Shown: piece after piece, positions 48,055 through 63,734 of the stretch
How positions within the stretch are numbered: position 1 is the stretch's first letter
Layout of the letters: each line of letters starts with the position of its first letter
The notes under the pieces: model-generated
The model's database searches: none
The model's input: only the letters and a program-made list of their open reading frames with translations
Told to the model about the DNA's origin: nothing
Made by a program: the position numbers and the translations under genes
NCBI RefSeq assembly: GCF_001677475.2
Contig: NZ_CP015229.1
DNA from: Escherichia coli
GTDB taxonomy: Bacteria > Pseudomonadota > Gammaproteobacteria > Enterobacterales > Enterobacteriaceae
Reading direction: 5' to 3' (one strand)
Length of the DNA: 64,000 bases

Positions 48055-51000
48055 ATGGAAGAGGCATTCTGGGCGGCAAGGCAGGGTGATGCCCTGCTGC
48101 ATACGTCGTTTATGGCAGATGTGCTGGGGGCAGTTGTAGAGGTTGCCGCCACAGCCCTGGTGGATGTTCTGGTTGTCGGAACCATGGCGGCGCTGGGCGG
48201 AGTTGAAGTGGCAACGCTGGGCTGCTCAACCATTTTAGCGATCGGTATAGCAACAGCGGTATTTATGTCGTATCAGGGCTGGAATGACCGAATCAGTAGG
48301 GAAAGTGAGCAACTGGCGAACTGGCTTTTCCCGCCTCAGATTGAAGGTTACATCCTCACCGGCTCTGGCGACACATGGATCAACAGCAAACCTGCCGCGC
48401 GGGCCGCGGCGACTGCGGCATCGCGGCAGGACATTGAGGCGCAGGAGGCGCAGGCGAAGGCGGAACAGGAAGAAGCGCAGCGTCAGGAGGATGCCAGAAC
48501 GTTCCTGGATGTGGCCGGGGAATATCTGGAAATGGCGGGGGCCATAGCCCTGGCGGTTAACCCGGTGACAGGGCCTGTGCTGATGTCCCGGGCGCTGCAC
48601 GACCAGCTCAGTACGGAAGAAGGGCGTTCTGAAATGGTGGATGGCGTGACACATTTTGTGTCGGAACTATGGCAGCCCACCGTGGCCAGTGCGGCCCCGG
48701 GCTCCACCCCGACCCCTGACGATAAAATCGACTGCCATAAACATCCCTCCTCACTGACGCAGTTTCTCGCACAAAAAAAAGCCGCCTTTCTGGATGACCC
48801 CCTGGGAACGGCCCTTAACCTGCTGAGTCCGGGCGGTATGCTGGAAACCGCCTTTCAGGGAGTGAATGCGGTTATTGGCAGCATCAGTAATCTGTTCAAA
48901 GGCGATGATGAACCGCCCGCAGCGGAATATATCGCGGAAGGCGCGCGGGATGTGCGTATCAACAGCCAGCCGGCGGCACGCAGCGGGGCACGCTGCACCT
49001 GCGAGGCCAGGGTGGTGAATGAGCCGGGGAACGGGGCGTTTGTGTCACCGGATGTCCGCATTGGCGGTCCGTTACTGGTGGTCAGGGATATCAGAAGCGG
49101 CAGGTCGCAGATAACCCTGGTGGCAACCGTGGCGCTGATGTTTCTTCGCCCGGGCAAAATGCTTTCTAAAATCGCCTGTTTTGCTGCCAGTGTCGGGATG
49201 GGGGTGATGACGCAGAAGGCCATCAGTGCCCTTCCGCATCCGGTCAATGCCGCCACCGGAGCCAAATATCTGGCCGATGACGATGATTTTGACTTCAGTC
49301 TGCCGGGCCACTTTCCGCTGGACTGGCAGCGCGTGTACAGCAGTCGTGACGACCGCACGGAAGGGATGTTCGGGCAGGGCTGGAGTGTAATGTATGAAGT
49401 CAGCCTCGAGCGCACGCCGGGTACTGCTGACGAAAACTGTATGACCTTTGTGTCGGGCATGGGACGACGTCTGGATATGGAGGCCGTGCTGCCGGGGAGC
49501 GGGTTTTACAGCCCCGGCGAAGGACTGGCAGTACGGCGGGGTGAGCAGGGGCACTGGCTTATCAGCAGCGATGACGGGCAGTTTTTTCTGTTTGAGGCCG
49601 ACCCGCGTCACCCGCAGCGCCAGCGGCTGAAAATGCTGGGCGACCGCAACAGCAACTGTCTGAATCTGTACTACGACGAGCTGGGGCGCATCACGCAAAT
49701 CAGCGGTGAACAGCAGCGTCCGTGCATCCGTCTGCATTATGAACTGGCGGCGCATCCCCGGCGGGTGACACAGATTTATCAGCATTTCCCTGAGATGGCT
49801 CCTTTACTGCTGCGTCGTTACCGCTATGACGAGGCCGGCGACCTGAACGGCGTGTACGACAGCACGGGGCACCTGCTGCGCGAGTTTGCTTACGACGAAA
49901 ACCACTGCATGACCCTGCACCGCCAGCCGGGCGGCGAAGGGTATTATTACCAGTGGGGCTGGTATGAAGGCCCGGATGACGCAGCGTGGCGGGTGACGGG
50001 GCACCACACGGACAGCGGTGAACAGTACCGGCTGGCGTGGAGCCTGGCGGCACGCAGGCTGTGCGTGACGGACGGGCTGGGGCGCACGCGTTATCATCAG
50101 TGGGACGCGCAAAATCAGGTGACGGCGTACCAGGACGAAGCCGGGCAGGTGACGACGTTCCGCTGGAGCGACGAAGAACGGCTGTTACTGGGAATGACCG
50201 ATGCGCAGGGCGGCAAATGGCGCTATGTGTATGACCGGCAGGGGCATATCACGGAGACGCACGACCCGCTGGGGCGGGTGGCACAGACACAGTGGCACCC
50301 GGTGTGGCACCAGCCGGAAACGGAGGTGGACGCGGCGGGGAACAGCTGGTGCTGTGAGTACGATGAACGCGGCAATCTTCTTGCGGTGACCGACCCGCTG
50401 CAGCAGAACACCCGGTATCAGTATGACCGCCACGGCCAGGTGGTGCAGATAACGGATGCGCGCGGGGGGAATAAATACCTTCAGTGGAACGAAGACGGGC
50501 AGCTCATGCGGCACACGGACTGTTCCGGCTCGCAGACGGCCTGGTTCTACGACGAACGCACGCGGCTGATACGGATGACAGACGCGCAGAGCCACAGCAC
50601 GCGCTACGGGTATGACGACAGCGGCCACCTGACGGAGGTGATACTGGCGGACGGCCGCACGGTGAATTACCAGTCGGACGCGGCGGGCAGGCTGGTGAAG
50701 TACACCAGCCCGATGGGGAGGATAACGCGCTGGCAGCGGGACGGGCAGGGCCGGGTGCGCAGCCGGACAGACGCGACGGGGCGCAGGACGGCGTTCGGGT
50801 ACGATGCCTACGGGCGTCTGGTCACGCTCACGAACGAGAACGGAGAAAGCTACCGGTTCCGCCATGACGTGCTGGACCGTCTGGCGGAGCAGATAAATCC
50901 GGACGGCTGCCGCCAGACGTACCGCTACAACGCGCTGAACGCGGTCACGGAAGTGGTGTTCACCGGGGACCGGGGCGGTGAAATCCGCCACCGGCTGGCA

Positions 51001-52737
51001 CGTGATGCGGCGGGCCGGCTCACGGCAAAGGAGACAGCCGATGGCCATACGGAATACGTCCATGATGCGGCAGACCAGCTACTGGAAATCCGCCGCCGAC
51101 GGTCGGATGCCGGGGAAACAGACGCACCGGAGATTATCCGTTTCAGTTACGACAGACTGGGGCGGATGCTGACCGAGGAGACGGCGCAGGGCGTCCTGAC
51201 CCATCAGTACGATGAACTCAGCAACCGGACAGCCACCACCTTTCCGGATGGCAGAACGCAGCGTCATCTGTACTACGGCAGCGGCCATCTCCAGCAGATA
51301 AATCTGGACCGGGAGGTCATCAGCGAGTTCACACGTGACGCCCTGCACCGGGAAGTGCTCAGAAGTCAGGGGCGACTGAGCACGCGGCAGCTTTATGACC
51401 CCGCCGGGCGGCTGAAGCGCAGGGAGACATACAGCGGGATGCGCGGGGTGGTACCGGAGACGTTCACGGACCGGCAGTACAGCTACAGCGGCGAGGATGA
51501 ATTGCTGAAGACGCGGCACAGCCGGCGGGGGGAAACGGATTACTTCTACGACCCCACGGGGCGCATCACGGCGTGCCGCTCGGAGGATGAGAGGTATCTG
51601 GCGAGCTGGCAGTACGACGCGGCGGGAAACCTGCTGGGGAGGCGCGCGGGGGAAAGGGCCACGGCAGAAAACAGCGTGGTGCCGTTCAACCGGCTGATGT
51701 CTTACCGTGGTGTGCACTACCGTTATGACGAATTTGGCCGGACGGTGGAAAAGGAGGGCCGGAGCGGCACGCAGAGTTACCGTTATGATGCGGAACACCG
51801 GATGGTGGAAGTGACGACAGCGCGGGGGACATACCGGTATGTGTACGATGCGCTGGGGAGGCGGACGGAAAAACAGCACATCAGCCCTGACGGTAAACCG
51901 TACAACCGGACGACATTTTTATGGGACGGAATGCGGCTGGCGCAGGAGAGCAGGCCGGAGGGAATAAGCAGCCTGTATATCTACAGCGACCCGGGGAGTT
52001 ATGAACCGCTGGCGCGGGTGGATAAGGCGGGCAAAGAGGGCCCGAACCGGATACTGTATTTTCACACGGATGTGAACGGTGCGCCGGAAGAGATGACGGA
52101 CAGTGACGGGAAAATCGTGTGGGAGACGGGGTATCAGGTCTGGGGTAACACGATACAGGAGAAGGACCACGGCGGGGTGGAGCAGAACCTGCGCTACCAG
52201 GGACAGTACCTCGACAGGGAAACGGGGCTGCATTACAATCTGCACAGGTACTATGATCCGGATGTCGGGCGGTTCATGGTAACGGACCCGATAGGGCTGG
52301 CGGGGGGACTGAATCTTTACCAATACTCACCGAATCCAATAAGTTGGATCGACCCGCTGGGATTAACAGGGGAGTGGGTTAATCCCAAAGATATTAATTT
52401 TTCTCAAAGAACAATATCACCTCATGATTATGCCGATATTATGCGTAATGGTGGTTGGGATTGGGACAGGTCTCCATTAAGAGTAATTGATATTGATGGG
52501 CAATTAGTTTCTTATGATAATAGGCGATTAGACGCAGCTCTAGAGGCCGGATTAGATAAGGTTAAAGTCATTAGAGTTGACCCTAATGCTCCTCATCCTG
52601 ACTCATCTACTGGAAAAACATGGTTACAAAAATTCCGAGAGAGATTTAGAGATCGAAGAAATATAAAGGCCGGTGGAATAGTACCAGATAAAGGATTAAA
52701 TTCTCGACCGGAAAGAACATCAAGAGGTTGCAAATGA
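48055..52737 (+). CDS. Rhs-family polymorphic toxin with prePAAR motif, N-terminal TM segments, PAAR motif, YD-repeat shell and variable C-terminal toxin domain
   Basis: 1560-aa ORF; N-terminus MEEAFWAARQGDALLH fits AARxxDxxxH; hydrophobic segments at residues ~20-70; SKPAARA PAAR motif; many YD repeats; [27 protein letters not shown] demarcation before a unique ~130-aa tip. Confidence 0.85.
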   Translation: MEEAFWAARQGDALLHTSFMADVLGAVVEVAATALVDVLVVGTMAALGGVEVATLGCSTILAIGIATAVFMSYQGWNDRISRESEQLANWLFPPQIEGYILTGSGDTWINSKPAARAAATAASRQDIEAQEAQAKAEQEEAQRQEDARTFLDVAGEYLEMAGAIALAVNPVTGPVLMSRALHDQLSTEEGRSEMVDGVTHFVSELWQPTVASAAPGSTPTPDDKIDCHKHPSSLTQFLAQKKAAFLDDPLGTALNLLSPGGMLETAFQGVNAVIGSISNLFKGDDEPPAAEYIAEGARDVRINSQPAARSGARCTCEARVVNEPGNGAFVSPDVRIGGPLLVVRDIRSGRSQITLVATVALMFLRPGKMLSKIACFAASVGMGVMTQKAISALPHPVNAATGAKYLADDDDFDFSLPGHFPLDWQRVYSSRDDRTEGMFGQGWSVMYEVSLERTPGTADENCMTFVSGMGRRLDMEAVLPGSGFYSPGEGLAVRRGEQGHWLISSDDGQFFLFEADPRHPQRQRLKMLGDRNSNCLNLYYDELGRITQISGEQQRPCIRLHYELAAHPRRVTQIYQHFPEMAPLLLRRYRYDEAGDLNGVYDSTGHLLREFAYDENHCMTLHRQPGGEGYYYQWGWYEGPDDAAWRVTGHHTDSGEQYRLAWSLAARRLCVTDGLGRTRYHQWDAQNQVTAYQDEAGQVTTFRWSDEERLLLGMTDAQGGKWRYVYDRQGHITETHDPLGRVAQTQWHPVWHQPETEVDAAGNSWCCEYDERGNLLAVTDPLQQNTRYQYDRHGQVVQITDARGGNKYLQWNEDGQLMRHTDCSGSQTAWFYDERTRLIRMTDAQSHSTRYGYDDSGHLTEVILADGRTVNYQSDAAGRLVKYTSPMGRITRWQRDGQGRVRSRTDATGRRTAFGYDAYGRLVTLTNENGESYRFRHDVLDRLAEQINPDGCRQTYRYNALNAVTEVVFTGDRGGEIRHRLARDAAGRLTAKETADGHTEYVHDAADQLLEIRRRRSDAGETDAPEIIRFSYDRLGRMLTEETAQGVLTHQYDELSNRTATTFPDGRTQRHLYYGSGHLQQINLDREVISEFTRDALHREVLRSQGRLSTRQLYDPAGRLKRRETYSGMRGVVPETFTDRQYSYSGEDELLKTRHSRRGETDYFYDPTGRITACRSEDERYLASWQYDAAGNLLGRRAGERATAENSVVPFNRLMSYRGVHYRYDEFGRTVEKEGRSGTQSYRYDAEHRMVEVTTARGTYRYVYDALGRRTEKQHISPDGKPYNRTTFLWDGMRLAQESRPEGISSLYIYSDPGSYEPLARVDKAGKEGPNRILYFHTDVNGAPEEMTDSDGKIVWETGYQVWGNTIQEKDHGGVEQNLRYQGQYLDRETGLHYNLHRYYDPDVGRFMVTDPIGLAGGLNLYQYSPNPISWIDPLGLTGEWVNPKDINFSQRTISPHDYADIMRNGGWDWDRSPLRVIDIDGQLVSYDNRRLDAALEAGLDKVKVIRVDPNAPHPDSSTGKTWLQKFRERFRDRRNIKAGGIVPDKGLNSRPERTSRGCK

Positions 52738-53212: not shown

Positions 53213-53542
53213 TTAACTCTCGTTCAGCACACTAAACATCCCGTTCCGCATCCCCTTAACCACCTGTTTAACCTGATAAAGTTCTTCCCGCAGCTCCTGC
53301 ACCTCGTCACTGTCAGCGATGATGGTCAGGTACCCCTCCGAAATCTTCACCGTGACACCCCGCCCGGTATCAAATCCCGCCTCAGCCAGCCAGTCGCCCT
53401 TGAGGTGCAGGCTGGGATGTTGTGAATAATACCGGGCTATACCTGTTGTGCGGTCCTGGTGGCGGGTTCTGACATAGCCGACTTTATAGCGGCGCTGGGT
53501 TTTGGAAATGGTGACTTCTGGCGTAATATCGTGTTCAGCCAT
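53213..53542 (-). CDS. SymE-like protein (type I toxin family, AbrB/MazE-like fold), full-length copy
   Basis: 109-aa ORF; core HLKGDWLAEAGFDTGRGVTVKISEGYLTII resembles SymE KGxWLxxAGFxxGxxVxV motif as recalled. Confidence 0.6.
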   Translation of the reverse strand: MAEHDITPEVTISKTQRRYKVGYVRTRHQDRTTGIARYYSQHPSLHLKGDWLAEAGFDTGRGVTVKISEGYLTIIADSDEVQELREELYQVKQVVKGMRNGMFSVLNES

Positions 53543-53781
53543 GATTAACTACTCCTGTTAGTTGCTTGTGGTGAGCGGCTGTTACAGGCGGCAACCTGTA
53601 GCAGTCGCGTTAAATATCAACGCATTACCTTCATTACCTGCTTCATCTTCTCCTGGGTGATCGCCATATCCAGAATACGGCAGATCACTTCCTGATCGTC
53701 TGCTTTAAGCTCATCAACCTGCTTACACAGTTCTTTTAACCGCTTGTTTTTTATATCGAAAACATCGCGGAAGAAGAAGGT

Positions 53782-54861
53782 GTGCGCCAGGCGGCCTACG
53801 CGCTCAAGCTGTTGCAGTCGGACGGGGAACTGACCATCGCCAGTACGGGCAAGGATGACGCCAGCGGTAACCTGGTCACCAAACAGTATACGGTGAAAGG
53901 CCCGGTGATGCTGATGCTGACCACCACCGCCATCGATGTTGACGAGGAGTTACTCAACCGCTGTCTGGTGCTGACGGTGAACGAATCGCGGGAACAGACG
54001 GAAGCTATCCACGCGGCGCAGCGTTACGCGCAGACGCTGGAAGGACTGCTGGCGGCTAACGAAAAAAGTTACATCACGCAGCTTCACCAGAACGCGCAGC
54101 GGCTGCTGCGCCCGCTCAACGTGGTGAACCCGTTCGCCTCGCAGCTCACGTTCATGAGCGACAAAACCCGCACCCGGCGCGACCACATGAAATACCTGAC
54201 GCTGATCCAGGCGATCGCCCTGCTGCACCAGTACCAGCGGGAGATCAAGCGCGTGGAGCATCGCGGGCAGGTGGTGGAGTACATCGAGGTCACGCGGGAG
54301 GACATCGCCCTGGCGAACCGCCTGGCACATGAAATACTCGGGCGCACCCTGGATGAAATGCCGCCGCAGACGCGCAAACTGTTAACCCTGATCCAGCAAT
54401 GGGTGAGCGACAGCGGTCAGGCGCGTGAGGCGATGCGGTTCACCCGTAAACAACTGCGTGACGCGGTACAGTGGGGCGACACGCAGCTCAAGATCCACCT
54501 GGCGCGGCTGGTCGAAATGGAATATCTGCTGGTCCACCGTCTCGGGCTGACGTTCTGCTATGAACTGCTGTTCGACGGGGACGGCAGCGCAGACACCGCG
54601 CACCTGTGCGGGCTGATCGACGTACCGGAACCACCGTATGACGTCGCCCGGTCGGGGGAAACGGTGAAGCAGCTGGCCTCTGGTCGGGCAGTGGTCGGCG
54701 GTCAGTCGGGTAAGGAAAAAACCGCCTCAGACCAGACACCACGAGGCTTACAGGCCGGAGCGGTCGGGGCAGAGGAAAAAGCCCTGTTCCGGCAGAACGC
54801 AAAAAAACCGTCCCGCAATCATACTGCGGCCCGTCCGGGCCGGAGCAACACGGAAGCATAA
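53782..54861 (+). CDS. Hypothetical protein, apparently 5'-truncated (no ATG; frame closed by TAA just upstream); function unknown
   Basis: 1080-nt open frame in GC-rich DNA, far longer than the overlapping opposite-strand ORFs; no family recognised. Confidence 0.35.
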   Translation: MRQAAYALKLLQSDGELTIASTGKDDASGNLVTKQYTVKGPVMLMLTTTAIDVDEELLNRCLVLTVNESREQTEAIHAAQRYAQTLEGLLAANEKSYITQLHQNAQRLLRPLNVVNPFASQLTFMSDKTRTRRDHMKYLTLIQAIALLHQYQREIKRVEHRGQVVEYIEVTREDIALANRLAHEILGRTLDEMPPQTRKLLTLIQQWVSDSGQAREAMRFTRKQLRDAVQWGDTQLKIHLARLVEMEYLLVHRLGLTFCYELLFDGDGSADTAHLCGLIDVPEPPYDVARSGETVKQLASGRAVVGGQSGKEKTASDQTPRGLQAGAVGAEEKALFRQNAKKPSRNHTAARPGRSNTEA

Positions 54862-55065
54862 GTACGACTTCATCCGGTCGGGGCAACGGCTGCAATAGTC
54901 GGCCCCTGGTCGGCAGTCAGTCGGCGGGTAGTCGGGGTGCGTAAAACCCCCGCAGGCCGCGCCCGGCAAGGTTCAGGCCATGAAGCGGTCGGCCTGCCTG
55001 AAAATCACTGTTCCATCCTCTGTTCTTCTCTCTGTCGTACCGTAATCTCAATCAGGACAATCATC

Positions 55066-56095
55066 ATGACAAAACCCATCCCTCCGGGGCCGGAGGAACT
55101 TTACCTCAGCCGCCAGAACCTGACGCAGCGCCAGTATGTGGTGGTGTGGCTGGAATACCTGACGGCACAGAACTACAGCGCGATCAGCGTAAGCGACTAT
55201 CGCGAACGGGTGTTACCGTTCGTGACATGGTGTGAGGAGCGCGGGCTGATGTACGCGCCGCAGGTCAGCCAGCCGCAGCTTGAAAGCTATCAGCGCCACC
55301 TTCACGGCTACCGTAAGGCGGACGGCCATCCGCTGGCGGTCAGCGGTCAGGTGGGCCGGATAAGCGCGATAAAAATCTTTTACCGCTGGCTGCTGAAGCG
55401 GCATGTGATCCTGTACAACCCCGCCGATCTGCTGGAACTGCCAAAGCCGGACAAACGGCTTCCGGCGCAGGTGTTCAGTAAGGGCGAGACGCGGCAGGTG
55501 TTACAGAGCCTTGATATCAACACGCCCGTTGGCCTGCGCAACCGGACAATCCTTGAGGTGCTGTGGAGTACCGGGATCAGGCGGATGGAGCTGGCCAGCC
55601 TGATGTTGTGGGATGTTGACACCGGGCGCGGTGTGGTTAACGTGCGGCAGGGTAAGGGGCGTAAGGATCGGGTGGTTCCGGTGGGCCATGTGGCGCTGGG
55701 ATGGCTGGCAAGACGTGCGACCACAGATGACGCGCCAGCGCGACAGTGGTCATCTGTTCGTGACGAAATACGGCAGCGGGATGAAACGCAACACGCTGAC
55801 GGCGATGGCAGGCACCGCGATCCGGGAAACGGCACGGATCGACAAACCGGGCGCGTGCCATATCTTCCGGCACTCGATGGCGACGCAGATGCTGGACAAT
55901 GGCGCAGACACGCGGCATATCCAGGCGATCCTCGGCCATGAGAAGCTGGAGACGACGCAGATCTACACGAAGGTGGCCATAAAGCCGTTGCAGAAGGTTC
56001 ATGCGCGGACGCACCCGGCAGAGAAGCGGCGAAGGGAAAAGCGCGTGCAGCAGCCGGACGAGGCCACCGTATCGCCGGACAGCCTGAAAAGTTAG
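55066..56095 (+). pseudogene. Tyrosine recombinase (phage-integrase family) with frameshift
   Basis: N-terminal SAM-like domain in one frame to ~55710 ([13 protein letters not shown]), catalytic domain ([16 protein letters not shown]...[13 protein letters not shown]...[13 protein letters not shown]) in the other frame from ~55700; single indel inferred. Confidence 0.65.
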
Positions 56096-57005
56096 GTGGC
56101 GATCCCTGTAAGGCCGTGGGGTGCGGTGCAGGGCAGACAACCGCCTTCCCTGGCGGTTGACTGCCCCCTGCCAGCGGCGTGCGCGGGGGTAAATGCCGTC
56201 CGCCCCGTGGAGGCAGCCGCGCCCCATGCGACCATGCAGCACGGGGCAAACGTCATTCAACATAATGCGGATTATGCGCACTCTCGCCGGTCGGCAATGA
56301 CGGCGAACCCGATCCGCTGTGCGCGGCTCGTGTTCGCACAATCCGCATTATGTCTGACGCCCCCGCGTTCAGCCCCGTGGTCCGTGCAGCGCAAAGCTTC
56401 GCTGGCGCTCCGCTCTGCTGCCGGGTGCGGTGTTCTTCTGTGGCCCCGCAGTCGCCGCCATCCCTGGCGGCTCCGGTGCCGTTCTGCGGCAGCGTCATCG
56501 TGTGGCAGTCAGTCAGAAAAGGGTGTCGGCCTGGCGGCCTCCGCTTGTAAGGGCTTTATGCCCGCCCGGCGTCGTCTGGCTGCGGCGGCTCGTGCCGCGC
56601 AAAAAGGCCGCGCGTCACTCGTTCCCGCCTCGCCAGCTTCCGCTGCCCGCCCCGGTCAGGTGTGGTCATGCAAAGGCAACCCCCGGTCAGGCAGCGGTGC
56701 CACAGAGCGCCGTTCCGTCGCTTGCGGACTCTCTGCCGCCCGCACCCGCAGACCCCGCGCCGTGGCCCCGCCATGCCGCCGGAGGCGTCCTGGCGGCCCC
56801 CCGTCACGGGGTGCCGGAAACGGACTTAGTGGAAAGCGGAATGACAGGCGGTGGTGGTGGTGCTATGGTGAGCGGGCGTGAAAATGCGCGTCGGGAAAGT
56901 CGGGTTAACGTGCTGTTAAATAAGTAAAAGGTGATAGCCGGGAAGCCAGAAACGGCGCGGGCGGTAGCGTGTTAAAAAGTGTGACCTGCACCGGATCGTT
57001 CCGAT

Positions 57006-57515
57006 GACCCGATAGGACTGCGGGGTGGATTAAATCTCTATCAATATGCGCCGAATCCGTTGAGCTATATTGATCCTCTTGGCCTTTGTAAATTAAGGGG
57101 AAGTAATGGGCGCTTCAGAAGTGCTCAGAATATTCAGGAAGAAATAGGCGGACTACCTAATTTTTCAGGGAAGACTCCAGGGCAAATACGACAAACTTTG
57201 CGTAATCGAGTTTATTCGTCGGTACAAGCGCATAGTGGTGGAGAGGTCTGGACAAAAGCATTACCTGACGGAAATACTGTTGCTGTGAGAATTGACCCGG
57301 CAAATCCTCGCTCACCTTCACATTATGCTGATGCTGTGCCTCATGCTCATATTGAAACAGTTCCAACGTCCAGTGTTTCTAATGGGAATTATCGCCCACG
57401 AGACGTGACTGGCAGGCATACTGCCACTGGTGGGATTTCTGACCGAGGAACGAATCCGAATCATAATGCTGATGTTCACATTCCAATGTCTCCGGGACGA
57501 TTCCCATATAATTAA
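57006..57515 (+). CDS. Orphan Rhs C-terminal toxin module (DPIGL homology patch plus toxin tip), no upstream core
   Basis: Frame opens with [28 protein letters not shown] then a unique ~140-aa domain; no ATG at the patch. Confidence 0.6.
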   Translation, partial: DPIGLRGGLNLYQYAPNPLSYIDPLGLCKLRGSNGRFRSAQNIQEEIGGLPNFSGKTPGQIRQTLRNRVYSSVQAHSGGEVWTKALPDGNTVAVRIDPANPRSPSHYADAVPHAHIETVPTSSVSNGNYRPRDVTGRHTATGGISDRGTNPNHNADVHIPMSPGRFPYN

Positions 57516-57526
57516 TGTGAGGTTTT

Positions 57527-57790
57527 ATGAATATCCGAAATCAATATAATGAAGCCTTAAATAAATTAGAAGTTGATGTTAATGATGGTTTAAGAGATTT
57601 AATAAACATATATTGTGTAGCTATTGATTCTTTTGAAAATGATATCGTTGACTCGATTGCTTTATACGTGATTGATATGGGAAATAAAGATACTTGTCGA
57701 TATCTACAAGAAATATTATCAGAGAATGAAGATCCTTATTTAGTAAAAGAATTTAATGCATGGATGAAAGAAATTAAGAAAAAATATTAA
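57527..57790 (+). CDS. Putative immunity protein for the orphan toxin at 57006-57515
   Basis: AT-rich 87-aa ORF 11 nt downstream of the toxin stop with RBS-like GAGG. Confidence 0.5.
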   Translation: MNIRNQYNEALNKLEVDVNDGLRDLINIYCVAIDSFENDIVDSIALYVIDMGNKDTCRYLQEILSENEDPYLVKEFNAWMKEIKKKY

Positions 57791-57836
57791 AATAAAAGCC
57801 GGGACGGTTATTAAATCTTCCCGGCTTTTTTATTAC

Positions 57837-58070
57837 TTAACTTTCGTTCAGCACACTAAACATCCCGTCACGCATTCCCTTAACCGCCTGTTTAACCAGA
57901 TAAAGTTCCCTGCGCAGTTCCTGTACTTCGTTGTTATCCGCAAGCAGGATCAGACATCCTTCCGAGATCTTCACGGTGACGCCCGTGCCGATCTCAAATC
58001 CCGCTTCTCTCAGCCATTTTGCGCTGATTTTGATTACCGGCGTGTCGCTGCGGTTGGGCAGATAACCCAC
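57837..58070 (-). CDS. SymE-like protein, short paralog (77 aa)
   Basis: KISAKWLREAGFEIGTGVTVKISEGCLILLADNNEVQELRRELY...; synonymous differences from copy 1 in this frame. Confidence 0.55.
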   Translation of the reverse strand: MGYLPNRSDTPVIKISAKWLREAGFEIGTGVTVKISEGCLILLADNNEVQELRRELYLVKQAVKGMRDGMFSVLNES

Positions 58071-58263
58071 GGTACAGTGGCGCTGTGTTTTGGAAATGAT
58101 ATTCTTATATTTAATCTGCTGATTAGATAGTAAAATTAACTTCGTGCAGATAGCTTACTTTATCAGGGTGCGGCGGTAGTGTATGAACTATGACGTGATG
58201 GTTTTAGTGATTTATATACGAAAATGACAGTACGATCCGGACTTCGAATAGATTGCGCGATTT

Positions 58264-58413
58264 GACCCGATAGGGCTGGCGGGGGGATTAAATCTCTATC
58301 AATATGCGCCTAATCCGTTAAGTTATATTGATCCACTTGGATTGTGTCCTAAAACTGACTTTAAATGGGGAAATCCCAGGGAAAGATCACGTAATGCTGC
58401 TTTTTTGTACTAA
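58264..58413 (+). pseudogene. Truncated orphan rhs C-terminal fragment
   Basis: [49 protein letters not shown] then stop, just before the ISAs1 element. Confidence 0.5.
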
Positions 58414-58419
58414 ACAATT

Positions 58420-59700
58420 CGCATTTTATGTTTAAAAATTGAGATATTCCTCATTACATAAAGCTGTTTTTTATTGCTTATACATGATCAAATACTCCTT
58501 ACATAATTAAGGAGAACAAAATGGAACTTAAAAAATTGATGGAACATATTTCTATTATCCCCGATTACAGACAAGCCTGGAAAGTGGAACATAAATTATC
58601 GGATATTCTACTGTTGACTATTTGTGCCGTTATTTCGGGTGCAGAAGGCTGGGAAGATATAGAGGATTTTGGGGAAACACATCTCGATTTTTTGAAGCAA
58701 TATGGTGATTTTGATAATGGTATTCCTGTTCACGATACCATTGCCAGAGTTGTATCCTGTATCAGTCCTGCAAAATTTCACGAGTGCTTTATTAACTGGA
58801 TGCGTGACTGCCATTCTTCAGATGATAAAGACGTCATCGCAATTGATGGAAAAACGCTCCGGCATTCTTATGACAAGAGTCGCCGCAGGGGAGCGATTCA
58901 TGTCATTAGTGCGTTCTCAACAATGCACAGTCTGGTCATCGGACAGATCAGGACGGATGAGAAATCAAATGAAATTACAGCTATCCCTGAACTTCTTAAC
59001 ATGCTGGATATTAAAGGAAAAATCATCACAACTGATGCGATGGGTTGCCAGAAAGATATTGCAGAGAAGATACAAAAACAGGGAGGTGATTATTTATTCG
59101 CTGTAAAAGGAAACCAGGGGCGGCTAAATAAAGCCTTTGAGGAAAAATTCCCACTGAAAGAATTAAATAATCCAGAGCATGACAGTTACGCAATTAGTGA
59201 AAAGAGTCACGGCAGAGAAGAAATCCGTCTTCACATTGTTTGCGATGTCCCTGATGAACTTATTGATTTCACGTTTGAATGGAAAGGACTGAAGAAATTA
59301 TGCGTGGCAGTCTCCTTTCGGTCAATAATAGCAGAACAAAAGAAAGAGCCAGAAATGACGGTCAGATATTATATCAGTTCTGCTGATTTAACCGCAGAGA
59401 AGTTCGCCACAGCAATCCGAAACCACTGGCACGTGGAGAATAAGCTGCACTGGCGTCTGGACGTGGTAATGAATGAAGACGACTGCAAAATAAGAAGAGG
59501 AAACGCCGCAGAATTATTTTCAGGGATACGGCACATCGCTATTAATATTTTAACGAATGATAAGGTATTCAAGGCAGGGTTAAGACGTAAGATGCGAAAA
59601 GCAGCCATGGACAGAAACTATCTCGCGTCAGTCCTTGCGGGGAGCGGGCTTTCGTAATCTTGCCCTGGGGGAAATCCAAAAAGTAAGCCTACATACGGTC
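58420..59700 (+). mobile_element. ISAs1-family (H-repeat) element; ends not precisely mapped
   Basis: Contains the 378-aa H-repeat-associated transposase ORF; boundaries approximate. Confidence 0.6.
58521..59657 (+). CDS. ISAs1-family transposase (H-repeat-associated protein, YhhI/YbfD-like)
   Basis: 378-aa ORF with typical H-rpt protein content; K-12 rhs loci carry homologues. Confidence 0.8.
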
Positions 59701-59726
59701 ACACATTTTCTGAACACGGACAGAAA

Positions 59727-59993
59727 ATGAAACCAAGTCAGTTAATTGATCGTGCCAGAAATAAAGGTCATCAAGTAGGACAATATCTCGATGATAATTC
59801 TGCTGCTGATTTTATTGCTTCTGTTGCCAAAAAAGGTCCGGGTGTGCATGATGTGCCATTGCCTACAAATATAAAAGGTCGAGGTTATTTGCCTGATGGG
59901 ACAGAGGTCGTTCCAGATATGGCAAGGGTTGTTGTAAAACCCGATGGTTCTGTACGAACATCGTTCCCATTCAATTCATCACACACCAACTAA
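59727..59993 (+). CDS. Hypothetical protein, possibly the distal part of an orphan toxin split by the ISAs1 insertion
   Basis: 88-aa ORF starting 70 nt after the H-rpt transposase stop, followed by an immunity-like ORF. Confidence 0.35.
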   Translation: MKPSQLIDRARNKGHQVGQYLDDNSAADFIASVAKKGPGVHDVPLPTNIKGRGYLPDGTEVVPDMARVVVKPDGSVRTSFPFNSSHTN

Positions 59994-60010
59994 AGTAATG
60001 AAGGGTATAT

Positions 60011-60391
60011 ATGAATGAAATAGATAAGATCTGTAGTGAACTTGGCGTACCAGTTGGTGATAAGTTTACACAAGATTGGGCTTATGAACTGCCTGAAAAA
60101 TATCGAACTAAAGAGTGGCTAAGTAAATACATTGCTGCATACTTAAACAATGGCTACTCCCAAAAAGGGAAGACTGAATTAATGACTTTAGCCCTTGATG
60201 TCTGTAATGATTTATTATCTTCTGGAGTACCCCCATCAGATGAGGTTATTATAAAAGTACTCAACGCCCTGCGTGATAATTACAAAAATCATATAGATCT
60301 TATTAATTATTGGTCCTTGGATGATGAATCTTTAGATGACAGTTTTGCATTAACTCCTGAAATAAGGGAGCTAAAAAGAAGATTGATTTAG
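60011..60391 (+). CDS. Putative immunity protein
   Basis: AT-rich 126-aa ORF followed by the shared hairpin terminator and a convergent symE-like gene. Confidence 0.45.
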   Translation: MNEIDKICSELGVPVGDKFTQDWAYELPEKYRTKEWLSKYIAAYLNNGYSQKGKTELMTLALDVCNDLLSSGVPPSDEVIIKVLNALRDNYKNHIDLINYWSLDDESLDDSFALTPEIRELKRRLI

Positions 60392-60452
60392 GATTATAAT
60401 ATTATTAAGTTATAAAAAGCCGGGAATATAATCTTCCCGGCTTTTTTATTAT

Positions 60453-60695
60453 TTAACTCTCGTTCAGCACACTAAACATCCCGTCACGCATCCCCTTAAC
60501 CGCCTGTTTAACCTGATAAAGTTCCCTGCGCAGTTCCTGTACTTCGTTGTTATCCGCGAGCAGGATCAGGCAACCTTCCGAGATCTTCACGGTAACGCCC
60601 GTACCGATCTCAAATCCCGCTTCTCTCAGCCATTTGGCGCTGATTTTGATCACCGGCGTGTCGCTGCGGTTGGGCAGATGCTGCGCTGGCAGCAC
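60453..60695 (-). CDS. SymE-like protein, paralog with replaced 5' end
   Basis: Near-identical to the 57837-58070 copy from codon ~5 onward; upstream sequence replaced by the rhs core fragment at ~60700. Confidence 0.5.
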   Translation of the reverse strand: MLPAQHLPNRSDTPVIKISAKWLREAGFEIGTGVTVKISEGCLILLADNNEVQELRRELYQVKQAVKGMRDGMFSVLNES

Positions 60696-60704
60696 GACGG
60701 CAGA

Positions 60705-62083
60705 GCCAGACGTACCGTTACAACGCGCTGAACGCGGTCACGGAAGTGGTGTTCACCGGGGACCGGGGCGGTGAAATCCGCCACCGGCTGGCACGTGATG
60801 CGGCGGGCCGGCTCACGGCAAAGGAGACAGCCGATAGCCGAACGGAATACGTCCATGATGCGGCAGACCAGCTACTGGAAATCCGCCGCCGACGGTCGGA
60901 TGCCGGGGAAATGGACGCACCGGAGATTATCCGTTTCAGTTACGACAGACTGGGGCGGATGCTGACTGAGGAGACGGCGCAGGGCGTCCTGACCCATCAG
61001 TACGATGAACTCAGCAACCGGACAGCCACCACCTTTCCGGACGGCAGAACGCAGCGTCATCTGTACTACGGCAGCGGCCATCTCCAGCAGATAAATCTGG
61101 ACCGGGAGGTCATCAGCGAGTTCACACGTGACGCCCTGCACCGGGAAGTGCTCAGAAGTCAGGGGCGACTGAGCACGCGGCAGCTTTATGACCCCGCCGG
61201 GCGGCTGAAGCGCAGGGAGACATACAGCGGGATGCGCGGGGTGGTACCGGAGACGTTCACGGACCGGCAGTACAGCTACAGCGGCGAGGATGAACTGCTG
61301 AAGACGCGGCACAGCCGGCGGGGGGAAACGGATTACTTCTACGACCCCACGGGGCGCATCACGGCGTGCCGCTCGGAGGATGAGGGGTATCTGGCGAGCT
61401 GGCAGTACGACGCGGCGGGAAACCTGCTGGGGAGGCGCGCGGGGGAAAGGGCCACGGCAGAAAACAGCGTGGTGCCGTTCAACCGGCTGATGTCTTACCG
61501 TGGTGTGCACTACCGTTATGACGAATTTGGCCGGACGGTGGAAAAGGAGGGCCGGAGCGGCACGCAGAGTTACCGTTATGATGCGGAACACCGGATGGTG
61601 GAAGTGACGACAGCGCGGGGGACATACCGGTATGTGTACGATGCGCTGGGGAGGCGGACGGAAAAACAGCACATCAGCCCTGACGGTAAAGCGTACAACC
61701 GGACGACATTTTTATGGGACGGAATGCGGCTGGCGCAGGAGAGCAGGCCGGAGGGAATAAGTAGCCTGTATATCTACAGCGACCCGGGGAGTTATGAACC
61801 GCTGGCGCGGGTGGATAAGGCGGGCAAAGAGGGCCCGAACCGGATACTGTATTTTCACACGGATGTGAACGGTGCGCCGGAAGAGATGACGGACAGTGAC
61901 GGGAAAATCGTGTGGGAGACGGGGTATCAGGTCTGGGGTAACACGATACAGGAGAAGGACCACGGCGGGGTGGAGCAGAACCTGCGCTACCAGGGACAGT
62001 ACCTCGACAGGGAAACGGGGCTGCACTACAATCTGCACAGGTACTATGATCCGGATGTCGGGCGGTTCATGGTAACGGACCCG
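60705..62083 (+). repeat. Near-identical direct repeat of the main rhs core 3' region (50914-52292)
   Basis: Nucleotide and protein near-identity to the main rhs over ~1.38 kb with a handful of substitutions (read by eye). Confidence 0.8.
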
Positions 62084-62518
62084 ATAGGGCTGAGAGGCGG
62101 ATTAAACTTATACCAATACGCGCCTAATCCGTTAAGCTGGATCGATCCTCTTGGATTAAGTGCCGCCTCTGATTTACCTCAATTAAAAGGAAGATCCCCA
62201 GGGGCAATAGGTTCTATTCTTACTGATAATGGATTCAATTTAGATAAACAAACAAGTACCGGGAATCAGACTTGGAGCCACGCCGATGGTTCTAAAGTTC
62301 GTGTCGATCCCTATGGAAACCAAAGTATGACTATGAAAAACGGTGATCCATTACCGAAATCAGGAGCTAACGCACATGTGCATAAATATGATCCCGGTGA
62401 GATACCGCTGAATGACAGAGGCATTCCGAGTACAAATCCAAATGAAACACATATAGGGATCAGGAATCCAAATGATTATTCTACAAAACGAGGGCGGGCC
62501 CATGGGTGCGGCGTATAA
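60746..62518 (+). CDS. Orphan Rhs fragment: C-terminal part of YD-repeat core plus an alternative C-terminal toxin tip
   Basis: 590-aa ORF; first ~455 aa match the main Rhs, ending [27 protein letters not shown], then a unique ~120-aa tip. Confidence 0.8.
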   Translation: MVFTGDRGGEIRHRLARDAAGRLTAKETADSRTEYVHDAADQLLEIRRRRSDAGEMDAPEIIRFSYDRLGRMLTEETAQGVLTHQYDELSNRTATTFPDGRTQRHLYYGSGHLQQINLDREVISEFTRDALHREVLRSQGRLSTRQLYDPAGRLKRRETYSGMRGVVPETFTDRQYSYSGEDELLKTRHSRRGETDYFYDPTGRITACRSEDEGYLASWQYDAAGNLLGRRAGERATAENSVVPFNRLMSYRGVHYRYDEFGRTVEKEGRSGTQSYRYDAEHRMVEVTTARGTYRYVYDALGRRTEKQHISPDGKAYNRTTFLWDGMRLAQESRPEGISSLYIYSDPGSYEPLARVDKAGKEGPNRILYFHTDVNGAPEEMTDSDGKIVWETGYQVWGNTIQEKDHGGVEQNLRYQGQYLDRETGLHYNLHRYYDPDVGRFMVTDPIGLRGGLNLYQYAPNPLSWIDPLGLSAASDLPQLKGRSPGAIGSILTDNGFNLDKQTSTGNQTWSHADGSKVRVDPYGNQSMTMKNGDPLPKSGANAHVHKYDPGEIPLNDRGIPSTNPNETHIGIRNPNDYSTKRGRAHGCGV

Positions 62519-62902: not shown

Positions 62903-63136
62903 TTAACTCTCGTTCAGTACACTAAATATCCCGTCACGCATACCCTTAACCACCTGTTTAACCTGATAAAGTTCCCTGCGCAGTTCCTGTACTTCGTTGT
63001 TATCTGCAAGCAGGATCTGGCAGCCTTCCGAGATCTTCACGGTAACGCCCGTGCCGATCTCAAATCCCGCTTCTCTCAGCCATTTTGCGCTGATTTTGAT
63101 TACCGGCGTGTCGCTGCGGTTGGGCAGATAACCCAC
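62903..63136 (-). CDS. SymE-like protein, short paralog (77 aa)
   Basis: Near-identical to the 57837-58070 copy. Confidence 0.55.
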   Translation of the reverse strand: MGYLPNRSDTPVIKISAKWLREAGFEIGTGVTVKISEGCQILLADNNEVQELRRELYQVKQVVKGMRDGIFSVLNES

Positions 63137-63329: not shown

Positions 63330-63734
63330 GATCCGATAGGGCTAAGAGGCGGGCTGAACCTGTATGCTTATGCGCCTAATCCGCTGAAATATATTGATCC
63401 ACTCGGATTAAAAAAAGAGCTCTGTAATGGAACTACTCGTGTGCGGCATTATACTAATCGTAAAGGTTCAAATGCGATTGCTGAAAGTGGGATAATTAAG
63501 GCGCATGATAACGGTCGTGTATATTTGGAACCTGCGAATAAAAAACCACTCAGTCAAGTAGACATAGAGGCGAAATATCAAATAGGTCGTGGGAAAGGTA
63601 GAGATTATGTGGATACAGATGTATCTAACGAGCAATTAGAGTGGGTAACAAACCCTCGATATCATATAGATGAATTGACTGTGAAAGGTGATATTATTCT
63701 TTCTGAAAATGCAAAAATAACTCGGCGTAAATAA
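63330..63734 (+). CDS. Orphan Rhs C-terminal toxin module
   Basis: Opens with DPIGLRGGLNLYAYAPNPLKYIDPLGL then a unique ~105-aa domain. Confidence 0.6.
   Translation, partial: DPIGLRGGLNLYAYAPNPLKYIDPLGLKKELCNGTTRVRHYTNRKGSNAIAESGIIKAHDNGRVYLEPANKKPLSQVDIEAKYQIGRGKGRDYVDTDVSNEQLEWVTNPRYHIDELTVKGDIILSENAKITRRK

Follow-up and report, generated by a model that had tools for sequence, protein, structure and literature searches.

In the C-terminal displacement model (Jackson et al. 2009, PMC2935791), a full-length rhs gene is followed by an array of tip-immunity modules. The account of recombination-activated Rhs orphans (Koskiniemi et al. 2014, cited in PMC5727410) describes the same array architecture, and both correspond to the arrangement of the locus analysed here. 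Copies of the H-repeat (H-rpt or ISEc1; ydcC, ybfD and yhhI-type) share a length of 1291 bp, the inverted repeats and a 378-aa transposase with the copy described below. According to one genome paper (PMC3032704), transposition of H-rpt has not been observed. The window (the whole 64,000-nucleotide stretch of Escherichia coli DNA that was analysed) covers the kdp-ybfA-rhsC locus, with 98.3% identity to E. coli kdpA/B-ybfA-rhs. As with the classical H-rpt copies, the ISEc1 copy described below sits in an Rhs locus.

The full-length rhs gene of the window is followed by an array of silent cassettes, each consisting of an orphan toxin tip, a putative immunity gene and symE. This toxin-immunity-symE order is repeated at every module of the array, and the tip-immunity modules each open with a conserved patch encoding DPxGL. 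The gene split by ISEc1 is orphan number 2 in the array, located downstream of the main rhs gene and co-oriented with it. Orphan 2 retains the conserved core-end patch but has neither an Rhs core nor a start codon. Local alignment identified an 80-nt patch as its sole homology to the main rhsC, and the NCBIfam model Rhs_assc_core matched residues 1-27 with an E-value of 2.5e-7 and 31.1 bits, slightly under the 32.5-bit cut-off. The frame is open back to position 58252 only, and the list of open reading frames contained no ATG, GTG or TTG start in the patch that would yield 30 aa or more. As the start codon is absent, the orphan 2 module is a silent orphan.

The gene is interrupted by an ISAs1-family element with all the marks of a complete insertion (Table 1). 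Both ends of ISEc1 are set by its terminal inverted repeats and by a 10-bp duplication that abuts both ends exactly, and the left end is also the exact point at which the flanks diverge from those of the E. coli ydcC copy. The inverted repeats are imperfect, matching at 13 of 15 terminal positions and extending to 27 nt at 78%. The two copies of the target, GGGGAAATCC, are identical; by our own arithmetic, a perfect 10-bp repeat at a fixed position would arise by chance with a probability of about 1e-6. Target duplications of the ISAs1 family range from 8 to 10 bp (ISfinder), a length for which the literature searched gave no confirmation. Deletion of 58377-59677, corresponding to the IS and one copy of the duplication, yields a continuous in-frame 142-codon ORF running from DPIGL to SSHTN. 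An initial annotation of this DNA had proposed that an ISAs1 element inserted into an orphan toxin tip, and had placed the DPIGL ORF, the transposase gene and the 88-aa ORF at the positions listed in Table 1, with an immunity-like ORF following. All four features were reproduced, and the proposal is borne out by the element ends and the duplication, which lie inside the gene, and by the frame restored on deletion.

Table 1 Features of the rhsC locus and of the ISEc1-split orphan 2 (positions in the window).
Feature	Position	Strand	Details and basis
Main full-length rhs (rhsC) gene	48055-52737		1560 aa; own DPIGL at 52285
Decayed rhs core-end remnant (YDPDFE*IARF)	58231-58263	+	In-frame TAG at 58249-58251; direct sequence reading
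DPIGL...DPLGL patch	58264-58344	+	27 codons; matches main rhs 52285-52364
DPIGL ORF, 49-codon stub	58264-58413	+	Last 12 codons, from 58377, read from IS left end
Linker and first toxin-domain residues	58345-58376	+	KWGNP conserved across toxin family
Target-site duplication, left copy, GGGGAAATCC	58367-58376	.	10 bp
ISEc1 (ISAs1 family, H-repeat)	58377-59667	+	1291 bp; identity to ydcC, flank divergence, inverted repeats
IRL, CAGGGAAAGATCACG	58377-58391		Left terminal inverted repeat of ISEc1
ISAs1-family DDE transposase gene	58521-59657	+	Intact, 378 aa; Pfam and NCBIfam matches
IRR, reverse complement CAGGGCAAGATTACG	59653-59667		Right terminal inverted repeat of ISEc1
Target-site duplication, right copy, GGGGAAATCC	59668-59677	.	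10 bp, identical to left copy
Toxin gene remainder (KSKPTYGHTFSEHGQKM...SSHTN*)	59678-59993	+	Rejoined ORF, family alignments, structure model
88-aa ORF	59727-59993	+	Toxin fragment from internal Met56; without H46 and H51
Putative cognate immunity gene	60011-60391	+	Intact, 126 aa; conserved next to toxin
Terminator-like hairpin	60414-60446	+	Between immunity gene and convergent symE
symE-family gene, closes cassette	60453-60695	-	Called SymE in identical public contigs

The initial annotation further held that the insertion separated the patch from the toxin domain. The split itself is real, but the insertion point separates codons P38 and K39, 5-6 residues into the conserved toxin domain (LKWGNP/KSKPTYGH) and shortly ahead of the putative catalytic residues, and not at the domain boundary. 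The left piece comprises the patch plus 11 codons and ends 12 codons into the IS at a stop codon (58411-58413). Beyond the IS right end, toxin coding resumes directly, with no start codon before Met56, and the remainder holds the invariant H46, H51 and R63 as well as the C-terminal T132-x-F134-P motif. The 88-aa ORF that had been taken as the toxin part is indeed a toxin fragment, but it covers just the sequence from Met56 onward, the longest product that could be translated from the right piece. Annotators should be aware that a single gene has given rise to both the 49-codon stub and the 88-aa "hypothetical protein", each being one half of it.

Uninterrupted homologues of the rejoined gene, which the initial annotation had suggested seeking, do exist. 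BLAST recovers the rejoined sequence in one piece from 45 complete E. coli genomes, at 92.3% identity. In the case of E. coli strain 104, the rejoined toxin forms the 3' end of a full-length rhsC (CDS L001:4771-9429, 92% nt identity), and the same 126-aa gene comes after it. The allele seen in the window is also present in E. coli GCA_012494665.1 (L003), where it is identical at 344 of 345 nt across the empty site AAATGGGGAAATCCAAAAAGT and the target occurs once; GGGGAAATCC is likewise single-copy in the uninterrupted homologues. Contiguous toxin proteins also occur in Pectobacterium parmentieri, Xenorhabdus bovienii and metagenome records. No fully intact copy of the exact window allele was found; since the best intact relative is 92% identical, some other defect may have been present in the window allele before the insertion.

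The transposase matches Pfam DDE_Tnp_1_assoc (PF13808, E 9.5e-34) and DDE_Tnp_1 (PF01609, E 2e-30), both over the Pfam cut-offs, and NCBIfam transpos_ISAs1 (NF033564) with an E-value of 1e-124 and 415.8 bits against a cut-off of 70. The element is 98.5% identical at the nucleotide level over 1300 nt to E. coli copies (ydcC), and RefSeq labels the matching copies 'ISAs1-like element ISEc1 family transposase'. The megablast match to ydcC ran 9 nt beyond the IS; a longer element or a conserved flank was considered on this basis and rejected, as the overrun is a chance partial match (GCCGAAATC at ydcC versus GGGGAAATC in the window).

At least 23 public draft contigs share this ISEc1 insertion. 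Over approximately 56900-60800, two independent public assemblies (L007 and L008) match the window at 100% identity, and the split arrangement is therefore no assembly artefact. Derivatives were also detected: one (L010) has an IS-adjacent deletion that leaves a different left flank at the same IS copy, and another (L011) has a different flanking locus. This ISEc1 copy has since served as a rearrangement substrate in related strains.

Most other ISEc1 copies examined lack a target duplication and have unrelated flanks (the ydcC copy, L002; L001 15483-16773; L003 1610-2900). Together with the different left flank of L010, this would fit a history in which recombination between ISEc1 copies joined unrelated flanks at one IS, with no gene having been split. 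However, the duplication here is a perfect 10 bp, the flanks rejoin in frame, and the sequence is contiguous in the 45 complete E. coli genomes and, at 344/345 nt, in L003. The empty-site sequences refute the joining of unrelated flanks, to which we assign a practically negligible probability. We are highly confident instead that ISEc1 transposed into the second orphan of the rhsC array, splitting the toxin gene and sparing the putative immunity gene. The insertion at GGGGAAATCC duplicated the 10-bp target and cut the toxin at P38/K39. It is very improbable that the 88-aa ORF, or a transposase-toxin read-through fusion, is functional in its own right. The ORF does begin 70 nt past the transposase stop in the frame of the transposase gene, with one TAA between transposase and toxin remainder, and 88-aa proteins with the same start have been called in other genomes (for example P0010 and P0026). 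However, a common frame arises in one of three cases by chance, and the 88-aa calls elsewhere are most simply explained by gene callers choosing the first ATG in startless orphans. In addition, the fragment is devoid of both H46 and H51, because it starts at the internal Met56.

The transposition of ISEc1 into orphan 2 is most simply seen as neutral decay of an unexpressed cassette, although sequence alone does not separate decay from selection. Selection would have permanently disarmed a dangerous spare toxin while keeping its immunity gene, possibly driven from the co-oriented transposase transcript or the IS end, to leave an immunity-only cassette as protection from competitors that deploy this toxin. 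Several observations are in line with this: the immunity gene is intact, downstream of the transposase gene and co-oriented with it; the interrupted allele persists across the assemblies described above in two flanking contexts; and independently inactivated copies of the toxin exist in further E. coli, with a different ISAs1-type junction in one case (L003) and premature ends in two (P0037 and P0027). Furthermore, the 45 complete genomes actively employ the toxin as their main RhsC tip. Against this, the orphan was already silent and hard to activate, having no start codon and only the 80-nt patch, and there was therefore little for selection to act upon. IS-driven decay of orphans is, moreover, common (PMC3150448). 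On balance, we regard a selected insertion as unlikely.

Counterparts of the putative cognate immunity gene lie directly behind the toxin gene in E. coli 104 (92% aa identity), P. parmentieri (70%) and Paenibacillus (26%, E 1.7e-10), such that the adjacency of toxin and 126-aa gene is kept across three genera. The 126-aa protein had no Pfam or NCBIfam match. A scan for promoter-like sites gave counts not over chance (5 sites versus 7.1 expected from shuffled sequence), and no promoter is claimed for the immunity gene. With regard to the symE gene that closes the cassette, a near-identical paralogue at 57837-58070 matches Pfam SymE_toxin. We infer that the cell would stay immune to neighbours deploying the toxin, with strain 104-like lineages using it as their main RhsC tip. 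Re-arming of orphan 2 by recombination with the main rhs would be blocked, the expected product being the Rhs core followed by 38 residues and 12 IS-derived residues.

The predicted toxin domain is widespread, with 581 cluster representatives at E<=1e-3, and is without Pfam annotation. It is always C-terminal in the matched proteins, and the carriers scanned include PAAR-Rhs proteins, Rhs proteins with PT-HINT and an S-pyocin-like protein. An alignment of 26 homologues revealed invariant G45, H46, H51, R63, A64 and G72; T132 is nearly invariant, and F/Y is present at position 134. Searches of Pfam and NCBIfam with the toxin, both split and rejoined, returned no family beyond the Rhs core-end patch, and the window toxin had no Pfam match even at E<=10, PF18431 included. 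RNAse_A_bac (PF18431) did give weak sub-threshold matches in 6 of 21 family members, the best (E 0.0017) falling under the cut-off. Sequence and profile searches of the PDB with the toxin produced chance matches only, such as the mitoribosomal mS71. An AF2 model of the rejoined toxin was confident for residues 51-140, whereas the conserved N-terminal stretch including H46 was of low confidence. The predicted fold is RNase A-like, and the best structural match, with modest scores, is CdiA-CT of Yersinia kristensenii 33638 (PDB 5e3e). The published active site of CdiA-CT(Ykris) (PMC5435912) consists of His175, Arg186 and Thr276/Tyr278. Judged by spacing and motif, H51, R63 and T132-x-F134 of the toxin family would match these residues. 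Both have a similar pattern of a His, an Arg some 11-12 residues on, and a C-terminal T-x-[YF]-P. The window toxin has no significant sequence similarity to CdiA-CT(Ykris), and its family has a second histidine that is invariant, H46, as well as the conserved leader KWGNPKSKPTYGH. From the predicted fold, the toxin would act as a small RNase of the bacterial RNase A-like type that needs no metal. The locus also draws attention to a C-terminal toxin domain that is widespread, lacks a Pfam model and probably adopts this fold.

An element encoding a primase and a tyrosine recombinase was observed to abut the DPIGL patch of neighbouring tips. Its genes encode an HTH protein, a DnaG/Toprim primase of approximately 910-970 aa and a XerC-type tyrosine recombinase, and one element end is a conserved arm of approximately 45 nt that abuts a startless DPIGL patch. 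In P. parmentieri, a 7461-nt unit occurs twice in tandem, in the order patch, tipA, immA, tipB (of the same toxin family as the split orphan), immB, symE, HTH, primase, integrase and arm. The boundaries of the unit coincide precisely with the DPIGL codon, and beyond the last arm lies a displaced tip of a different kind. E. coli CUWW11 has tandem elements carrying different tips. The gene set and the arm/DPIG junctions both recur in Lonsdalea populi, on a circular 'plasmid' of 11,289 bp. The window itself contains a decayed copy of the element at approximately 53550-56950, ending at the orphan 1 patch. No primase-element remnant was found directly upstream of orphan 2 (58071-58263); this spacer consists of the symE 5' region and the decayed core end, and is common to the spacer before orphan 4. 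A fixed linkage between the main tip and the primase element was considered and rejected, as in E. coli A34 the main tip, its immunity gene and symE directly adjoin ybgA. The orphan cassettes, including the ISEc1-split toxin family, may be cargo of a small plasmid-like primase-XerC element acting as a tip vehicle, a tentative proposal to which we give slightly less than an even chance. On integrating at the DPIGL-coding site in a resident rhs gene, such an element would join its own tip to the core and shift the previous one downstream. If true, this would supply a vehicle and an integrase for 'C-terminal displacement', and explain both the arrival and the displacement of Rhs tips. The literature searched yielded no published description of a primase-XerC element carrying Rhs tips. 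Among the closest statements, Steele 2017 associates integrase-like genes with Rhs in bee gut bacteria, and Zhang 2012 places XerC/D recombinases next to polyimmunity loci.

The insertion into orphan 2 is an ordinary event of a known kind that is cleanly provable here. The IS-disrupted orphans of CDI/Rhs systems (Poole et al. 2011, PMC3150448) are likewise silent pairs downstream of a full-length gene and interrupted by mobile elements. Those examples are cdiA-CT orphans, whereas the window concerns an rhs-CT, interrupted by ISEc1 with the putative immunity gene spared. Unlike the recombination-activated orphans, orphan 2 could probably not be re-armed, because the IS parts the patch from the catalytic portion of the toxin. 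The stakes of the insertion are small, and could be greater for the primase-XerC element. The locus offers a clean, fully reconstructable case in which an IS disables a spare toxin and spares its putative immunity gene. With respect to the H-repeat, the 10-bp duplication around the window copy is pristine and other strains have the matching empty sites, in contrast to three other copies examined, which have neither. Judged from these sequences, this copy is comparative evidence for a genuine transposition event, and indicates that ISEc1, an element for which the literature describes no observed movement, transposes and produces a 10-bp duplication.

The window corresponds to the E. coli kdp-ybfA-rhsC locus, with 98.3% identity across kdpB-kdpA-kdpF-ybfA and the first part of rhs. 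The split gene is the second of the orphan toxin modules. Traced backwards, its frame stays open as far as 58252, just before which a TAG closes it, and it offers no start codon. The 33 nt before its patch (the DPIGL-coding core-end stretch that heads each tip, or C-terminal toxin part) derive from a core end that has decayed (YDPDFE*IARF), and homology to the main rhs gene is limited to 80 nt. This module is a true orphan. Every module of the array is closed by a convergent symE-family gene, and a shared hairpin precedes each. Between symE and the patch that follows it (58099-58263, and likewise ahead of 63330), the spacer consists of a decayed core end with the form YD..*.YDP..., a feature that Pectobacterium orphans also conserve.

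Features of the rhsC locus and its orphan array (window coordinates)
Feature	Position	Length or strand	Remarks
Full-length rhs gene	48055-52737		DPIGL codon at 52285; own tip, immunity gene and symE follow
symE-family genes	53213-53542, 57837-58070, 60453-60695, 62903-63136	- strand
Primase remnant	53782-54861	359 aa	C-terminal part only
XerC-like recombinase	54937-55941 and 55613-56095		split over two frames
Patches of the four orphan modules	57006, 58264, 62078, 63330		downstream of main module
DPIGL ORF (left part of split gene)	58264-58413
10-bp direct repeat	58367-58376 and 59668-59677	10 bp	GGGGAAATCC; perfect, flanks ISEc1
ISEc1	58377-59667	1291 bp
Transposase ORF	58521-59657	378 aa	ISAs1-family DDE transposase
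88-aa ORF within right part of split gene	59727-59993	88 aa
Putative immunity gene	60011-60391	126 aa
Orphan 3	60746-62518	590 aa	core fragment, near-identical to main rhs core
Orphan 4	63441-63734		Tox-ART-HYD1 ADP-ribosyltransferase tip

H-repeats are classical constituents of Rhs loci. The initial annotation had proposed that an ISAs1 element inserted into an orphan toxin tip, and the ORFs it invoked were all found where it had placed them: a DPIGL ORF ending 22 codons past its 27-residue patch, the transposase gene, an ORF starting 70 nt past the transposase stop, and an immunity-like gene downstream. The transposase is matched by Pfam DDE_Tnp_1_assoc and DDE_Tnp_1, and by NCBIfam transpos_ISAs1 at 416 bits (cut-off 70). 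When the 5,426 complete E. coli genomes were searched by megablast, window 58377-59676 showed 98.5% identity to copies annotated as 'ISAs1-like element ISEc1 family transposase' (ydcC). Comparison of flanks with the ydcC copy placed the left edge of similarity exactly at 58377. A longer right end, with 9 extra matched bases, was rejected as a chance partial match (ydcC GCCGAAATC versus window GGGGAAATC). The element thus spans 58377-59667; its terminal inverted repeats are CAGGGAAAGATCACG and CAGGGCAAGATTACG, and a perfect target duplication flanks it. It is the only ISEc1 copy in the window; three other copies examined lack a target duplication.

Deletion of ISEc1 and one repeat copy restores a continuous 142-codon frame, whose product comprises 38 residues before the cut and KSKPTYGHTFSEHGQKMKPSQ...SFPFNSSHTN* after it. 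The rejoined DNA is found uninterrupted, at 92.3% identity, in 45 complete E. coli genomes. In strain 104 it forms the 3' end of a full-length rhsC (L001:4771-9429), followed by the 126-aa gene and symE; the alignment is unbroken through AAATGGGGAAATCCAAAAAGT, and the target occurs there once. The same allele is present in GCA_012494665.1 (L003), with 344/345 nt identical across the empty site. Contiguous proteins also occur in Pectobacterium parmentieri, Xenorhabdus bovienii and metagenome records, with more distant ones in Paenibacillus and Lachnospiraceae. These three lines of evidence (the 45 genomes, L003 and the contiguous proteins) show the uninterrupted frame to be the ancestral state. 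The insertion reading is thus supported, because homologues joining both fragments exist and both ends of the element lie inside the gene. According to a genome paper, H-rpt transposition 'has not been observed' (PMC3032704); the window copy with its pristine duplication, together with the empty sites, makes a good comparative case for transposition of ISEc1.

The proposed separation of patch from toxin domain needs one refinement: the cut, between P38 and K39 (LKWGNP/KSKPTYGH, slash marking the cut), falls within the conserved domain, five to six residues from its start. The left stub runs 12 codons into ISEc1 before a stop. In the right part the first start is Met56, and in the absence of an earlier one the 88-aa ORF lacks H46 and H51. 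Patch recombination with the main rhs gene would now be predicted to yield an Rhs protein that is cut short and has no toxin. The immunity gene remains whole, in the same orientation as the transposase gene; a promoter scan for it gave nothing above chance. The toxin remainder is in frame with the transposase ORF, with one TAA (59655-59657) between them (window 59655-59726), which is probably a coincidence (1 in 3).

Neither the toxin nor the immunity protein had a sequence match in Pfam, NCBIfam or the PDB. A toxin-only profile nevertheless retrieved 581 cluster representatives (50% identity) at E<=1e-3, of which 381 reach E<=1e-10. In most of the proteins listed, which are up to 3,688 aa long, the match forms the extreme C-terminal end. 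Four of the six longer carriers scanned contain RHS repeats, together with a PAAR motif in one and PT-HINT in another; the others are one S-pyocin-like protein and one without a Pfam hit. The toxin is thus a real, widespread C-terminal domain unannotated by Pfam. G45, H46, H51, R63, A64 and G72 are invariant in the family, and T132 and P135 nearly so. An AlphaFold2 model, confident for residues 51-140, has a helix-strand-helix-four-strand topology, and Pfam RNAse_A_bac gives weak, sub-threshold matches in 6 of 21 relatives. The published active site of the RNAse_A_bac toxin CdiA-CT(Ykris) consists of His175, Arg186, Thr276 and Tyr278, the Tyr often being Phe in homologues (PMC5435912); by spacing, H51...R63...T132-x-F134 of the toxin fits this pattern. 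On the basis of model, profile matches and residue spacing, the most likely mode of action is that of an RNase A-like toxin. The matches do not amount to membership of PF18431, to which the toxin was therefore not assigned; the toxin family (alignment A2) could instead merit a model of its own, related to RNAse_A_bac. Counterparts of the 126-aa gene lie next to the toxin in E. coli (92%), Pectobacterium (70%) and Paenibacillus (26%, E 1.7e-10), and it is this synteny that supports a putative immunity role.

At least 23 public contigs carry a gene call for exactly the 88-aa product, and two independent assemblies (L007 and L008) match the window at 100% identity over about 56900-60800. The insertion is absent from all 5,426 complete RefSeq E. 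coli genomes. In GCA_025810455.1 (L010, 1145-1830) the same ISEc1 and right junction are preceded by the HTH gene of a neighbouring high-GC primase element, which indicates that orphan 1 and the left stub were lost through IS-adjacent deletion or IS-IS recombination. GCA_012921415.1 (L011, 1-3284) carries an identical right-junction cassette (toxin remainder, immunity gene, symE), then an ISAs1 remnant and yafV-ivy-fadE; it either sits at a different, Rhs-bearing chromosomal locus or reflects Rhs-mediated rearrangement. The toxin has been inactivated independently in other E. coli. In L003 the break in the gene lies further downstream, following ...DGTEV (L003 1610), at a different ISAs1-type junction, and the remainder of the cassette is missing. 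One protein record (P0037) ends early, at ...WGNPKK, from which we infer a frameshift in the adjacent A-run, and another (P0027) is truncated.

Between the main-module symE and orphan 1 lies a block of 60-70% GC (about 53550-56950), which is a deleted copy of an element encoding HTH, DnaG/Toprim primase and XerC-type recombinase proteins. This element (annotated HTH, DNA primase, XerC, hypothetical) occurs in 62 complete E. coli genomes, at a median of four sites per genome, and also in L015, L017/L019 and L018. The window copy is defunct, given its split recombinase and reduced primase. In all the cases examined, the end distal to the recombinase is formed by a conserved arm, aaaaag-N3-gac-N~7-cgg-N~6-ccSat/GACCCGATAGGG, directly adjoining a startless DPIGL patch and tip; in the window, this is the patch of orphan 1. 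Both E. coli CUWW11 and P. parmentieri carry intact tandem copies, whose units are bounded exactly at the DPIGL codon. The latter has the order rhs core, patch, two copies of a 7461-nt unit (99.9% identical), patch, and a different tip X with immX. Each unit comprises tipA, immA, tipB, immB, symE, HTH, primase, integrase and arm, tipB being of the same family as the toxin split by ISEc1. What appears to be a full Campbell-type structure is visible here. A circular 11,289-bp 'plasmid' record of Lonsdalea populi holds the same genes and two arm/DPIG-tip junctions. The element may be an integrative vehicle by which Rhs tips are exchanged, whether by site-specific integration or by homologous recombination through the patch. 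No description of such an element carrying Rhs tips was found in the literature searched; Rhs-associated integrase-like genes were noted by Steele et al. (PMC5727410), and XerC/D recombinases beside polyimmunity loci by Zhang et al. (PMC3482391). Disruption of orphan toxins by IS elements is already documented (PMC3150448), and overall the ISEc1 insertion is a new instance of this known type of event.
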